Positions 13,261 through 25,377 of a stretch of DNA of 64,000 nt are shown here, in pieces. The DNA lies in assembly GCA_017403085.1 (NCBI GenBank), contig JAFQOQ010000001.1, positions 295-64,294 on the forward strand, read 5' to 3'. Numbering within the stretch: the stretch's first letter is position 1; each line of letters begins with the position of its first letter. The notes beneath the pieces were generated by a model. The model did no database searches. It saw nothing but the letters and a program-made list of their open reading frames with translations, and was not told where the DNA came from. The position numbers and the translations under genes are program-made. The stretch comes from Alphaproteobacteria bacterium. Its GTDB lineage: Bacteria; Pseudomonadota; Alphaproteobacteria; Rs-D84.

Positions 13261-14763
13261 CTAATTACAAATATCGTCAAATGTAAATTCTTGTTTATAC
13301 TGTACGCCGTTTTGCTTAAAGAAACACACGACTTTATCTTGTCCCATTAAATCGCAGTCGCCATCGCATATTAAATCAGATATTTGGTTATTATTATTCC
13401 TGATGTATTGTTCGGCCTGTGTTGTGGCATCGTATTCTGTTCTGGTTTGAACACGTGCAAACTGTTGCACTGTGGGCAGTGTTGTATAGTTTTGTGTGCC
13501 GTTGCAAATATCGTCAAATGTAAAATGTGTGATTCCATTTTCGCCTGCGTTGGTACCCCATGTACATGTGACGGTGTCGTCCCCAACAGAATCGCACACG
13601 CCCCAGCATTTTACATAAGACACGTTCCCCAGTATCGATTTTACGTATTCTGCGGCCTGTCTGTACGCATCGGGTTCTGTGTTTGTTTGCATATTTGCGA
13701 ATACATTTACATATGCAGACTCAATAAAATTCTGGCGCAAATTTCCTGTGTTCTGCTCATTGCTATATATGATACGTGCTTGTTCGGCGACGCCCTTGTG
13801 TATTACAGAATCTTTTTGTGCCTGTCCGCCAACCAGGCCACTGGTCGTTGCCTGTTCATTATCGGCCATTAAATCGTACAGTCCGACAATGGCCTTGGCG
13901 TCTGTTCCCTTGCGTGCGCCAAAGATATAATGTCCCAACCATTCGAAATTAACAATGCGTCCTTCGAACAGAACGCCATTTGTATGCGCCCAGGATGCGC
14001 CATATGTCGAATCCGCCTTTTGTTCCGGTGTTTGATACAGTTCAACCCCAATAGAATCCTTGATATCTGTATCGCCTTGGGACGACAGACCACTGGAATT
14101 CAGTGTGTATAATAAATTTCCCCCAGTGCTTTGTTCAATCATATCACTAACGGCCTTGGTCATATCGACTGCGCTATAAATAACACTGCGGTTATGTACC
14201 CCAACCAGATTATCATTAGTATCAATGTTTATAAACATATCAGGTGTTCGTGTCTGAAATGGTAATTTTGTGACCTGGCCTGTTGGGCTAATATTATACA
14301 CATCATTAGAATTACCTGGCACAACGCCGATAATACTATAAACACCATTGTTATTACCCAGTATTCCCGTTCCGTTATACGGTTGTACATATGTTCCTGG
14401 CGCGGTCAGTTTATCAACTAATTTATTATGTGCGTCTATGGCGGTTCCGATATAGGCCTGGCATTGCACATTTGCCGGAATACTTTTGTCTATGATTAAA
14501 TTATTAGAATCGCATGAATCATCTTGCTGATGTAAAAAATATTGGCAATTTTGCACCAGGTCATGCGTCGAAAGCGCGCCATTGTTTTGGATGATATAAT
14601 CGTTCAAATTTGCCAATTCTGTGCTTTTTGTCTTGGCGCAATAACGCCGCACGCCGGCATACGCATCACTAATCGCAGTCAAAGAAATCTCAGAAATTTC
14701 TTGTGCGAACAAGACGCCGGGAAACACGCACAATAAAAACATCAATGCATATTTTCTTTTCAT
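13261..14763 (-). CDS. secreted hypothetical protein A2 (cassette A, downstream gene)
   Basis: Signal peptide MKRKYALMFLLCVFPGVLFAQE. The ATG at 14763 overlaps the A1 stop in an ATGA. The C-terminus carries two copies of a Cys module ending FTFDDICN. Confidence 0.8.
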   Translation of the reverse strand: MKRKYALMFLLCVFPGVLFAQEISEISLTAISDAYAGVRRYCAKTKSTELANLNDYIIQNNGALSTHDLVQNCQYFLHQQDDSCDSNNLIIDKSIPANVQCQAYIGTAIDAHNKLVDKLTAPGTYVQPYNGTGILGNNNGVYSIIGVVPGNSNDVYNISPTGQVTKLPFQTRTPDMFINIDTNDNLVGVHNRSVIYSAVDMTKAVSDMIEQSTGGNLLYTLNSSGLSSQGDTDIKDSIGVELYQTPEQKADSTYGASWAHTNGVLFEGRIVNFEWLGHYIFGARKGTDAKAIVGLYDLMADNEQATTSGLVGGQAQKDSVIHKGVAEQARIIYSNEQNTGNLRQNFIESAYVNVFANMQTNTEPDAYRQAAEYVKSILGNVSYVKCWGVCDSVGDDTVTCTWGTNAGENGITHFTFDDICNGTQNYTTLPTVQQFARVQTRTEYDATTQAEQYIRNNNNQISDLICDGDCDLMGQDKVVCFFKQNGVQYKQEFTFDDICN

Positions 14764-15704
14764 CTTAGTGCTTCCTCGCATTTATTTGCAACGCTTACGG
14801 CGCGTTTAGTTGCGTTAATTTGTGTTGCGTTAAATATTGTTGCGGTTGCAGACGCTATTGTTGTGCCACCCGCCAGTACATTGGCCGCCGTATTCAAGTT
14901 TTTTTCTTTTTCCTTGCCTGTGTCGCTGTTATCGTTGCGTGTTTTGTCTGTGTTTGCCATTGCACTGGTAACAACACCCGCCAGCCCCAGTCCCGCGCCA
15001 ACACCGCTAGAAATAGCGGCCCCAGACGCCTTTTTGTTTATGCTGCTTACATCAACCGTGCCCCATTCTCCGCACGCGCGCACAATATTTTCTGCGTACG
15101 CTAAATCTTGTTCGTTGGCGGTCCCGCTAATCCTGGCCTGCATGCGCACATTTGATAGATTTTTAACAGATTCCACACATGCATCAATTTGCGATTTCAA
15201 ATCACCTTTGACTTGATTGGTTCCGGCGATAACAGCGCCGGCAATATTTGTTGCAACAGACGTCGCCATCAGTCCAGTTCGCCAATTACCCATACTCTTA
15301 GATTTTTCATTTAATTGGGCTAATTGTCTTTCTTTTTCAGATATCGCATTATTTTTGTTTGCCTGGGGTGACGTTGCGGCCCAATTTACATGTATTGGTT
15401 TCAGATTCAGTGGGTTTTGCGCATACGCCATCTTGCGTAAATTTGCTAATTCAGCCCCTATTTCTTCTGCGATTTTATCTGTACTAGATTTTACCAGCCC
15501 CACCACGGTGGCGCCGCCCCCAGCAACAGTCCCTGTTGCCGTCACAGCGGTATTTATGCCGGCCAATTTTTTAATTTCGCCCAGTTCATTACCAATACCA
15601 CCACACAATGTGCGCGTATTTGCAATGGCGATGCTAAGTTCGGAATTTGCATATGCCGTCCCGCATCCGCAACATATCATTAAAATAATCAAGCACTTTT
15701 TCAT
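14760..15704 (-). CDS. secreted hypothetical protein A1 (cassette A, upstream gene), paralog of 20930..21865
   Basis: Signal peptide MKKCLIILMICCGCGTAYA, four Gly/Ala/Thr-rich hydrophobic segments, and four Cys conserved with the paralog. Confidence 0.82.
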   Translation of the reverse strand: MKKCLIILMICCGCGTAYANSELSIAIANTRTLCGGIGNELGEIKKLAGINTAVTATGTVAGGGATVVGLVKSSTDKIAEEIGAELANLRKMAYAQNPLNLKPIHVNWAATSPQANKNNAISEKERQLAQLNEKSKSMGNWRTGLMATSVATNIAGAVIAGTNQVKGDLKSQIDACVESVKNLSNVRMQARISGTANEQDLAYAENIVRACGEWGTVDVSSINKKASGAAISSGVGAGLGLAGVVTSAMANTDKTRNDNSDTGKEKEKNLNTAANVLAGGTTIASATATIFNATQINATKRAVSVANKCEEALR

Positions 15705-24800: not shown

Positions 24801-25377
24801 ATTGATTGCGGGTGGTCGCGACAAGGGCTCTTCTGCCGCTGCCACATCGGTCGTGCCGGCCACACCATCTGATATCGATGGTATTATGGCAATTGCCGGT
24901 GGTGTATTGGGATATGATAACAGTTATCCAATAACCCTAATCCCATTGCCAACGACACTGAATACATATGTGCCAATCGTGAATATTAACAATAATGCGG
25001 TCGTCGTGGTCAGCTATGCCAACCATAACCTGCCGTATTATATGGATGCAAATCGCAAAACATGGACGCCGTTGTTGGGTATTGGTGTAAATGGTGGTTG
25101 GTTTAATACATATCCAAACACCCCGACGACTGGTATCGGTGCGATTGATTCCATAACCCAGATTTTGAACCAGAAATTAACACCATCTGTTGTTCAAAAG
25201 TACGTTCTGGGCGATGCAAGTGGTCTGCGTTTCCCATCGGCGGGCCCAATGGCATACCCGATAATTAACGCAGAATTTCCAAATGGGGTTGTATGGCAAT
25301 ACACAAATCCATTAAGTCCATCGGACCAGACCCTATATAATTCAAATTACGCGTTAATGCAGAATATGTTTAAATAA
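21862..25377 (+). CDS. giant secreted/membrane hypothetical protein B2 (cassette B, downstream gene)
   Basis: The ATG overlaps the B1 stop in an ATGA. Signal peptide MKKILAVLFSLFLITPASAAV. Cys-rich N-domain, 44-aa hydrophobic block, charged helical region, DTGAGAVTTS x4, a PDP-rich tract, a second TM segment, and a C-terminal domain. Confidence 0.85.
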   Translation: MKKILAVLFSLFLITPASAAVYLKVETNVLEPIAKKYFTDEDDLADALEEWRDQLSDNNSQGISAAGIWEVCDEGGLKISKPEGKASCEAFIKDLLGAGSDTYYYVCGADKGKSGGTEHCIDKVFDRESGDGSVQVQIAQAIILSIEYIRQKYNDTVTCFNDVRTESNDDYIACKSTKSNTFYEVKFSDAKETDDKTIALGVQAGICAIHGLGVFGDGVTTKIVPTGCSGVDTWATCGKVNETAKKFGYNVINQEYYYALYPNKPSMARNYFQNQCIFNANTIHDQSQIKNLYGAPIDNYIFSTAKTEIQIYSDGSTHGTIRRYVEAMIGAENLKTFSCEGTQMRWIRKGSDNEDIIRCFVNGKQVDFVFDDLSESGLIFGESIRRGSKQALECIVSGGTYSGSKCLHLNEKQCNDLRQANLDNCPECKTVQWNREKWICELPSSAKANNIQRGVVATGIVVGAAAAVVITVATGGTGAGALAVVAVELAGAGIELASQTQINQIADDFLSESNKCQDEACAERLIGENLQRLANFTNDLTTPEEYAIDEEMARLLNLIPEDSEFYQRVLEQGATLVANEKGFFDADSWEPEQIWRAVGITLQLASLVTAAGKWIWTGGKTVTTKMTKASDVMRLRLTRAQAKHLDDWAGQLADIARARQASGLSKSKADELWAAYKSIGNKRRHLLNQLGNPSEELLPLLQREAYLTDDLAKARTALDDVIRQQDNLFMTNKNGQQVLRPGRSKHDVQALIRQNDELTKRIDDIGRELGELDGQITTMLGKQAPVEIVQTITTPGHALFDDGIANSARLAQLGILEVKNQTRKELDNYATPAVVAAIVATDTGAGAVTTSDTGAGAVTTSDTGAGAVTTSDTGAGAVTTSGITTAVTPTPDPDPKPTPTPAPDPNPDPDPAPTPTPAPDPNPNSDPAPDPIVFPALTVTPVPAPVAPITPHKVDKPKNTALIATAAVAGVAVTGGLIGGLIAGGRDKGSSAAATSVVPATPSDIDGIMAIAGGVLGYDNSYPITLIPLPTTLNTYVPIVNINNNAVVVVSYANHNLPYYMDANRKTWTPLLGIGVNGGWFNTYPNTPTTGIGAIDSITQILNQKLTPSVVQKYVLGDASGLRFPSAGPMAYPIINAEFPNGVVWQYTNPLSPSDQTLYNSNYALMQNMFK
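24385..24504 (+). repeat. in-frame 30-nt tandem repeat, 4 copies (DTGAGAVTTS)
   Basis: gat/gac-actggtgctggggctgttacaacttct is repeated head to tail. Copies differ only at one or two silent positions. Confidence 0.95.
24532..24627 (+). repeat. in-frame imperfect 48-nt tandem duplication (PDPDPxPTPTPAPDPN x2) within a Pro-rich tract
   Basis: Unit 1 is 24532-24579 and unit 2 is 24580-24627. The Pro/Asp/Thr low-complexity tract spans about 24526-24653. Confidence 0.85.

Follow-up and report, generated by a model that had tools for sequence, protein, structure and literature searches.

Two coupled gene cassettes from an Alphaproteobacteria bacterium belong to a multi-copy two-gene operon specific to the Candidatus Enterousia/Rs-D84 lineage

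Examining a 64,000-nucleotide stretch from an Alphaproteobacteria bacterium of Rs-D84 (contig JAFQOQ010000001.1 of assembly GCA_017403085.1; the whole of this stretch is called the window below), we evaluated two gene pairs, cassette A (genes A1 and A2) and cassette B (genes B1 and B2), which a preliminary description made from the letters alone had proposed to be a conserved two-component secreted or surface system. We found the cassettes to be two members of a multi-copy two-gene operon that is specific to the Candidatus Enterousia/Rs-D84 lineage, with a conserved first gene running directly into a second gene whose product varies widely. With a probability of roughly 0.45, we interpret the two products as an envelope complex that would be made in stoichiometric proportion, in which the first, a glycine-zipper protein, would dock, anchor, present or help translocate the second. 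The cassettes and their junctions are arranged as follows:

13261..14763, minus strand: A2, 500 amino acids (aa) counted from an MKRK start, from the list of open reading frames (ORFs)
14760..15704, minus strand: A1, 314 aa, from the ORF list
14760..14763, minus strand: ATGA stop/start overlap of A1 and A2, translational coupling
20930..21865, plus strand: B1, 311 aa, paralog of A1
21862..25377, plus strand: B2, 1171 aa, from the ORF list
21862..21865, plus strand: ATGA stop/start overlap of B1 and B2

In both cassettes alike, the downstream ATG overlaps the upstream TGA as the tetranucleotide ATGA, and the identical coupling originally reported is found at 14763-14760 on the minus strand and at 21862-21865 on the plus strand. 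The N-termini of A1, A2, B1 and B2 each read as a lysine- or arginine-containing n-region, a hydrophobic core and an AxA-type site, and all four products are predicted to be Sec-exported. End to end, A1 and B1 are identical at 147 of 318 positions (46%, E 2e-73 by BLASTP), bearing out the paralogy first seen in blocks aligned by eye. Behind the A1 signal peptide (residues 1-19), the four cysteines of the mature region (C34, C176, C211 and C309) match those of B1 in the alignment and do not vary among 105 family members, such that the earlier observation of signal peptides and four equivalent cysteines holds well beyond the two window genes. We defined the A1/B1 family by a length of about 300 aa, a signal peptide, four invariant cysteines, four Gly/Ala-rich stretches and a stop codon lying -4 to +1 nucleotides (nt) from a signal-peptide ORF, and A1 and B1 both possess all of these features.

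We surveyed this pairing across all ORFs of 84 fetched loci plus the window, where a hidden Markov model (HMM) gave 93 matches to A1-type genes, 83 of them non-redundant and assessable. Every one of the 83 has the ATG of a signal-peptide-like ORF at -4 to +1 nt from its stop, with junctions of the ATGA type in 52, the TAATG type in 7 and the TAA-A-ATG type, which has a 1-nt spacer, in 24. The partners encoded downstream are Cys-rich proteins between 207 and 1819 aa long. In the opposite direction, from cargo to upstream gene, the B2 homologs P0319 and P0325, picked by similarity to B2 only, are each preceded by a gene for 296-321 aa with a 4-nt overlap. The pairing foreseen in the preliminary description is thus conserved in related genomes (83/83 loci), and what does not stand is the picture of a duplicated local pair, since A1 and B1 sit in two deep clades with counterparts in other species and so do not derive from a recent local duplication.

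Evaluating the size of the family, we obtained more than 1762 matches for A1 among 5.8 billion proteins, none of them with a functional name or a Pfam domain; the few labelled ones read 'hypothetical protein [Alphaproteobacteria bacterium]' and come from metagenome-assembled genomes (MAGs). A HMMER search of 1.84 billion cluster representatives (50% identity) placed at least 440 clusters in the family at E <= 0.001, 371 at <= 1e-10 and 209 at <= 1e-30. The matches listed are mostly about 300 aa long, the rest being mainly shorter fragments, and a few longer ones hold the domain at their C-terminal end. Scanning one genome per species in GTDB revealed 234 A1-type loci, of which the best 80 were all from gut or rumen MAGs and were labelled Candidatus Enterousia or uncultured Alphaproteobacteria/proteobacteria, with two 'Rickettsiales bacterium' and one 'Muribaculaceae' as the exceptions among those 80. 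Several genomes carry two to four A1-type loci apiece, and the family is a lineage-restricted, multi-copy one of Candidatus Enterousia and order Rs-D84. As for the Muribaculaceae exception, locus L025 (contig CAZJGX010000033.1, 'uncultured Muribaculaceae bacterium') holds a complete cassette of an A1-type gene and an A2-like (class III, below) partner, and its label is most likely a binning error rather than a sign of transfer to Bacteroidota.

The proteins downstream fall into several families. All-against-all BLASTP (1e-5) of 92 partners gave the following classes:

Class I, B2-like: 37 members, full-length proteins 883-1819 aa
Class II, small and Cys-rich: 16 members, 232-393 aa
Class III, A2-like: 13 members, 397-708 aa
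Class IV, with a Tlde1/YkuD-like domain: 11 members, 349-456 aa
Singletons or pairs: about a dozen of the 92

A2 clusters with the 12 other class III partners, whose sequences come from the fetched loci. When the upstream proteins were arranged in a neighbour-joining tree, B1 fell in a clade paired almost only with class I, and the other major clade mixes classes II, III and IV with singletons, sometimes as sister tips. Given this interspersion, we conclude that one partner has repeatedly been replaced by another without loss of the coupling. Known domains are limited to some partners of other genomes and occur in neither A2 nor B2. One partner carries a trypsin-like protease domain (1.1e-10, above the Pfam cut-off), and another consists of leucine-rich-like (BspA-type) repeats recognised by eye in a protein where Pfam found nothing. 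All 10 class IV members tested match the Tlde1 domain (best 1.1e-7) and 7 of the 10 match YkuD, with scores under the Pfam gathering thresholds (best listed 24.1 bits vs 30.1). Their C-terminal motif H-G...S-x-G-C-I is invariant (alignment columns H407, S417, G419 and C420). Most partners, including A2, B2 and class II, gave no recognisable enzymatic or toxin domain in Pfam searches that covered 10 representative partners.

What most partners do share is a helical unit of about 90 aa with two cysteines placed right after the signal peptide, which we call the N-module (consensus ..DTKIKWSSSAL....ISVRELVKVC...(loop)...KCEDFIETLIEKHNK). With signal peptides masked, an iterative HMM found it in 72 of the 92 partners (35/37 of class I, 16/16 of class II, 13/13 of class III and most singletons), and some small partners are little beyond two tandem copies of it. 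The same model matched none of 1840 shuffled sequences. Models built with one class left out detected the A2 N-module at 3e-4 to 7.5e-4, and profile-profile comparison connected class III to class II (probability 95%, E 2.7e-8) and, using pre-trimmed segments, class I to all other classes (probability 85%, E 5.8e-6). The N-terminal unit of B2 is on these grounds probably the same module as that of A2. The N-terminus of class IV was considered as a further N-module and rejected (hhalign probability 0.2%).

The distribution of the N-module follows that of the A1-type gene. Searching all ORFs of about 1 Mb of loci and the window with the N-module HMM, we found that 65 of 67 matching ORFs lie directly 3' of an A1-type gene, and the remaining two adjoin a cassette. 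Conversely, three B2-like giants of 1345-1988 aa (L088 4001-9967, L089 3001-7038 and L091 3001-8448) possess two of the Cys modules described below, no N-module and no A1-type gene upstream. In such homologs those modules are shifted some 400-520 residues inward behind a different N-terminal extension, and for P0282, P0299 and P0287, which lack the N-module, an A1-type gene is absent upstream in 3/3 contexts. This pattern of co-occurrence and co-absence is our chief reason for supposing that the A1-type protein and the N-module act jointly. The extension of about 400-520 aa in these giants combines a signal peptide with coiled coils and with Gly/Ala-rich helices reminiscent of A1, and it might functionally replace a separate A1-type partner; as a fused A1 domain it was rejected, with HMM matches of 0.009-0.3 and an hhalign probability of 6% leaving homology unsupported.

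A second unit connects the two window partners, which are barely similar as whole proteins (best BLASTP E 0.02). This is the duplicated Cys module that the preliminary description had noticed in A2 and B2, and it proves to be a unit of about 54 aa ending in F-x-F-D-D-[ILV] that occurs twice in each protein (FxFDD module; consensus LAKEYVRNK...C...DD[VY]V.C......YEF.FDDL.ES). Two copies are present in 34 of 37 class I members and one or two in 12 of 13 class III members. An HMM made from the class I copies only recovered copy 1 of A2 at 1.3e-5 and, more weakly, copy 2 at 0.021, and the reverse model from class III copies matched 8 of 37 class I proteins, B2 itself not among them. The modules and other parts of the two window partners lie as follows:

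14419..14706, minus strand: A2 N-module, residues about 20-115, by iterative HMM
13864..14406, minus strand: A2 central conserved domain, with motifs PGTYV, TWTNDMF and HTNGVxFxGKIxxLEWLGH among its invariant alignment columns
13498..13659, minus strand: A2 FxFDD copy 1, residues 369-422
13264..13419, minus strand: A2 FxFDD copy 2, residues 449-500, at the C-terminus
21907..22164, plus strand: B2 N-module (probable), residues about 16-101, by iterative HMM
22291..22440, plus strand: B2 FxFDD copy 1, residues 144-193
22819..22989, plus strand: B2 FxFDD copy 2, residues 320-376
23209..23361, plus strand: B2 hydrophobic Gly/Ala/Val-rich stretch, residues 450-500, Kyte-Doolittle hydropathy up to 2.47
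24388..24629, plus strand: B2 tandem repeats, 30 bp x 3.8 copies at 98% identity, encoding TSDTGAGAVT
24736..24819, plus strand: B2 second hydrophobic segment, residues 959-986, Kyte-Doolittle 1.95
24829..25374, plus strand: B2 C-terminal domain, about 180 aa

A2 thus runs from its signal peptide through the N-module and the central domain, which had no Pfam or PDB match in class III, to the two FxFDD modules. B2 is more elaborate: its signal peptide and N-module lead into a Cys-rich ectodomain with both FxFDD modules and a hydrophobic hairpin, followed by a coiled-coil region, tandem repeats, a Pro-rich linker, the second hydrophobic segment and the C-terminal domain. Residues 450-500 are predicted to form a transmembrane hairpin, and almost every full-length class I partner has a similar segment. 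The description of the downstream genes as large secreted proteins holds for their signal peptides and needs amending in two respects: for B2 the prediction is a membrane anchor in place of free secretion, and the partners belong to at least four families. Across class I it is the N-terminal 450-600 aa or so that are conserved. The 30-bp repeats of B2 are followed by Pro/Asp/Thr-rich repeats of 30/48 bp and are in frame, which would allow length variation by slippage. The C-terminal domain is 56% identical to the C-terminus of the protein at the syntenic locus L082, and the middle of the protein is not conserved. We found 61 B2 homologs, unnamed and without a Pfam domain, the few labelled ones being from uncultured Alphaproteobacteria.

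Turning to the conserved protein itself, six alignment columns are invariant among the 105 diverse members (C34, G69, G139, C176, C211 and C309), and the four cysteines would form two disulfides; a DsbA-like protein is encoded in a related genome. An AlphaFold2 model of A1 built on the 105-member alignment is all-helical (predicted local distance difference test, pLDDT, 80.8; predicted template-modelling score, pTM, 0.62), with long helices at residues 37-95, 115-162, 167-193, 198-216, 219-250 and 261-313. Its confidence is highest near the cysteines and lowest (about 68-75) in the most conserved stretches. Those stretches, helical, glycine-zipper-like and rich in Gly, Ala, Ser and Thr, cover residues 48-70, 143-161, 228-252 and 273-296 and are placed side by side. 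Each has 19-25 residues with virtually no charged residue in any of the 105 members and is 59-70% Gly/Ala/Ser/Thr, with a recurring GxxxG spacing read from the alignment, and the regions flanking them are 30-47% charged. Such charge-free, best-conserved segments suggest a membrane-embedded or oligomerisation belt, and if all four crossed a membrane with the N-terminus outside, the four invariant cysteines would all be periplasmic. The bacterium is a diderm, with a TolC-type outer-membrane protein encoded beside B2.

Comparable features are known from the glycine-zipper outer-membrane proteins SlyB/Pcp and the Rickettsia 17-kDa antigen, which are exported and membrane-seated and oligomerise through Gly/Ala-rich GxxxG helices of low hydrophobicity. 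These are small lipoproteins with one two-helix hairpin, whereas A1 has four stretches within long helices and no lipobox, and no glycine-zipper Pfam family matched any of the 105 members at E <= 1. Lipoprotein anchoring of A1 was considered and set aside, as the family alignment has no conserved lipobox and its signal peptides end in sites of AxA (signal peptidase I) type.

No search connected any of the four proteins to a described family, in agreement with the preliminary description. Pfam, NCBIfam, PHROGs and PADLOC returned noise only for A1, A2, B1 and B2; the 105 A1-family members taken singly gave no recurring Pfam family; and sequence searches of the PDB, run with single sequences and with profiles for three groups (the A1 family, class III and class IV), gave nothing meaningful. 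Foldseek, which had been named as a check alongside profile searches, returned nothing significant for the A1 model against PDB (best E 0.2, TM-score <= 0.36), the weak recurring neighbours being HblL1, AhlB, SmhB, Umb1 and designed helical bundles. Against the viral structures of BFVD the best match had E 8e-3 and a TM-score of 0.27, and the long helical tail-fibre or chaperone proteins found there were judged non-specific. An Umb1 match at E 0.04, seen with a first AlphaFold2 model of A1 (22 sequences, pLDDT 58), was not reproduced as significant with the better model. A literature search gave no description of an A1/B1-type gene pair. The protein families and the two-gene module appear to be new, and their function may be analogous to that of a known kind of system.

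Assembling these observations, the envelope-complex reading would work as follows. Translational coupling would deliver the proteins of gene 1 and gene 2 in fixed proportion, and the two would form a complex in the cell envelope with the A1-type glycine-zipper protein as its membrane-associated subunit. That subunit would dock its partner mainly via the N-module, and would anchor it, present it or help it across. The function itself, for example attachment to other cells or the host or remodelling of the envelope, would then come from the variable partner through exchangeable payloads that include Cys-knot FxFDD modules, the membrane-anchored giant, L,D-transpeptidase/Tlde1-like domains, a trypsin-like domain and leucine-rich-type repeats. 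The adhesin or toxin with a partner or chaperone, offered as an example in the preliminary description, we regard as a guess.

Several observations weigh against this interpretation. The four stretches of A1 are weakly hydrophobic (mean Kyte-Doolittle 0.9-1.2), and its loops have no positive-inside bias and no excess of lysine plus arginine in any loop; this argues against a classical inner-membrane protein and makes membrane insertion of A1 uncertain, and A1 may instead form a soluble bundle in the periplasm. Among partners encoded behind an A1-type gene, eleven Tlde1-like ones and a few single cases have no detectable N-module, and so the N-module cannot be the sole docking element. The leave-class-out HMM search did not recover the class I N-module, for which reason the assignment in B2 is probable rather than certain. 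Finally, the loci were gathered around A1-type genes, which partly biases the association as viewed from the cargo.

Among the alternatives, we regard it as unlikely, if worth keeping in view, that the A1-type protein is an export helper in the manner of two-partner secretion (TPS), that is, a chaperone acting transiently in the periplasm, or else an alpha-helical channel in the outer membrane, that reads the N-module, moves the partner across the outer membrane and does not remain bound. The gene order and logic fit both TpsB-TpsA and MafA-MafB, and the joint loss of N-module and upstream gene in B2-like relatives speaks for such a helper. In type Vb secretion, too, a conserved partner gene stands right upstream of a large, variable, Sec-exported protein, and in the cargo a conserved N-terminal domain follows the signal peptide. 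TpsB is an Omp85 beta-barrel of about 550 aa with POTRA domains, whereas A1/B1 proteins have about 290 mature residues and are predicted to be all-alpha. ShlB and POTRA gave no Pfam or NCBIfam match in A1/B1, the TPS (haemagglutination activity) domain gave no Pfam match in A2, B2 or 10 representative partners, and the N-module differs from it in being a two-Cys unit of about 90 aa. The Maf loci of Neisseria (MafA-MafB, in some cases with MafI) have a gene for an exported protein of about 300 aa just upstream of a signal-peptide protein; MafB is conserved in its N-terminal domain and variable at its C-terminus, and genomes carry several Maf copies. The cassettes resemble these loci in gene order, conserved N-terminal domain, variable remainder and copy number, and differ from them in having no Pfam or NCBIfam match to MafA or the MafB DUF1020, no conserved lipobox in the A1 family and no conserved downstream immunity gene. 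Besides the fact that the A1 family resembles neither Omp85/TpsB nor MafA nor known secretion components of any other kind, the tight 1:1 coupling would suggest a stoichiometric partner over a catalytic helper, and class I partners look membrane-anchored rather than secreted.

Quite unlikely in our view is a binary toxin, or effector delivery, in which the A1-type protein would be a secreted alpha-helical pore-former or translocator. It would insert its glycine-zipper helices into the membrane of a target cell and deliver the polymorphic effector encoded downstream, with the N-module as an adaptor comparable to the N-terminal domains of the anthrax toxins LF and EF. Such a system would account for partners that are polymorphic and swapped, for the Tlde1 toxin domain matched by 10/10 class IV proteins and the one trypsin-like protease partner, and for the resolvase and restriction-modification genes adjoining some cassettes. 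The weak recurring Foldseek neighbours AhlB, SmhB, HblL1 and the Umb1 toxin particle point the same way, and ClyA-family and tripartite alpha-pore-forming toxins (AhlB, SmhB, Hbl-L1, Nhe) resemble A1 as elongated helical bundles of about 300-370 aa with an uncharged membrane-inserting region that are encoded beside their partner components. These structural matches were however non-significant: against PDB, HblL1 gave E 0.27 (TM 0.24), AhlB 0.45-0.65 (TM 0.25-0.30) and SmhB 0.9 (TM <= 0.25), with no ClyA-type fold at E <= 0.001. Unlike the tripartite toxins, the A1 family has no Pfam HBL match, A1 has four separate Gly/Ala-rich stretches and four invariant cysteines, and its partners are unrelated to it. 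Most partners have no recognisable enzymatic or toxin domain, and class I partners have strong membrane segments of their own. The likeness to the Tlde1/YkuD L,D-transpeptidase fold is limited to class IV partners of other genomes, leaving A2 and B2 aside, and its scores are sub-threshold for a fold also found in housekeeping L,D-transpeptidases; unlike Tlde1, class IV proteins are Sec-exported and A1-coupled rather than tied to a type VI secretion system. Across the partner classes of the fetched loci, no conserved third, immunity-like gene follows the partner. Taken over all the known systems compared, the features looked for from type Vb secretion, Maf loci, the ClyA fold and SlyB/Pcp were each absent.

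That the pairs are two functionally independent exported proteins sharing an operon by inherited gene order is very unlikely, for although the genomes are compact, overlapping stop and start codons are common in such genomes and gapR and its next gene also abut in the window, a pairing that persists over at least four unrelated partner families and 83/83 loci is not explained by simple inheritance, and the presence of the N-module correlates with that of the upstream gene.

A bolder interpretation takes the A1/B1 family as the core of a new export, surface-display or effector-delivery system of diderm bacteria, in which an alpha-helical, disulfide-stapled glycine-zipper protein, assembled in the outer membrane of the bacterium itself or in a membrane of a target cell, would read the N-module of polymorphic cargo; we hold this to be doubtful. 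An invariant partner coupled to cargo with a shared N-module has the logic of secretion and polymorphic-effector systems, built from entirely different protein families. Should the conserved protein be a translocator or an anchor, it would represent a new family of envelope machinery, together with new domains (the N-module, the FxFDD module and the class III central domain). Were the bolder interpretation true, it would provide genomes of <1 Mb with a means to attach to, feed on or attack partner cells. Candidatus Enterousia, a member of order Rs-D84, has very compact genomes of 0.75-1.0 Mb without a TCA (tricarboxylic acid) cycle, respiration or standard transporters, and these bacteria have been proposed to draw metabolites from other cells via uncharacterised membrane proteins (PMC12306168). 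The lineage is widespread in the guts of humans, livestock and other animals. The cassettes take up 5.6 kb of the 64-kb window, a noticeable share for a tiny genome, and their module, made up solely of exported proteins without known relatives, is a testable candidate for the interface of Enterousia with its partner cells.

The surroundings of the cassettes in the window include the following features:

12882..13142, minus strand: 86-aa ORF that may be a third gene of the A operon, 118 nt beyond A2
16040-16113: tRNA-Gln, between the cassettes
16158-16910, minus strand: 250-aa ORF between the two tRNA genes
16946-17020: tRNA-Glu, between the cassettes
25381..25405: strong bidirectional terminator-like hairpin directly after B2

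Between the cassettes there are also genes for a HAD hydrolase, pyruvate kinase, GapR and an RNHCP-domain protein (Pfam), and the 250-aa ORF, at first called 'kinase-fold', had no Pfam match at E <= 0.001. The bracketing of a tRNA/pyk segment by the cassettes is real in the window; it is not conserved at the other loci, and we regard it as incidental. GC content is flat over the cassette region. The gapR and RNHCP-domain genes (20189-20751) overlap by 1 nt, the end of gapR at 20437 being the start of the next ORF, which indicates that tight gene packing is common in the genome independently of the cassettes. Downstream of B2 lie genes for a MarR regulator and the TolC-type outer-membrane protein (Pfam), through which L082, alone among all loci, is syntenic with the B cassette.

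The hairpin at 25381..25405 marks the end of the B1-B2 operon. On the A strand, the first strong terminator-like hairpin (12875-12856) comes after the 86-aa ORF, which may be a third cistron of the A operon, its membership being uncertain. This ORF has two hydrophobic Gly/Ala-rich segments by eye, no Pfam match and no counterpart after the other class III partners. Elsewhere, a recurrent ORF of about 97-100 aa without a signal peptide (L043 ~9746-10039, L008 ~5131-5424, L015 ~9583-9885 and a fragment in L011; motif DYGYFDAFPDG..AGR...VEYMAVLPK.GKKQALIDG) lies just 3' of small partners (class II or singletons) in several genomes. For this subclass it may serve as an immunity-like or accessory gene, and the window has no copy of it.

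Some cassettes adjoin resolvase genes and restriction-modification systems (L085 106-2832, L001 4384-6374, L004 15831-16439 and L091 117-713), L085 additionally having DUF3768 and DUF5906 genes. This hints that some cassettes lie in regions that are mobile or prone to recombination, a setting that could account for the swapping of cargo. A gene of the Peptidase_S8 (subtilisin) type occurs a few kb downstream of class II cassettes in L001 (10312-11505) and L004 (13990-15834), and may be a coincidence or a processing protease. In two further loci an N-module protein is not directly coupled to an A1-type gene, being a second cargo gene in tandem in L078 (8873-11733) and standing upstream of a cassette in L016 (3600-4322), and from these cases we conclude that cassettes can hold more than one cargo gene.

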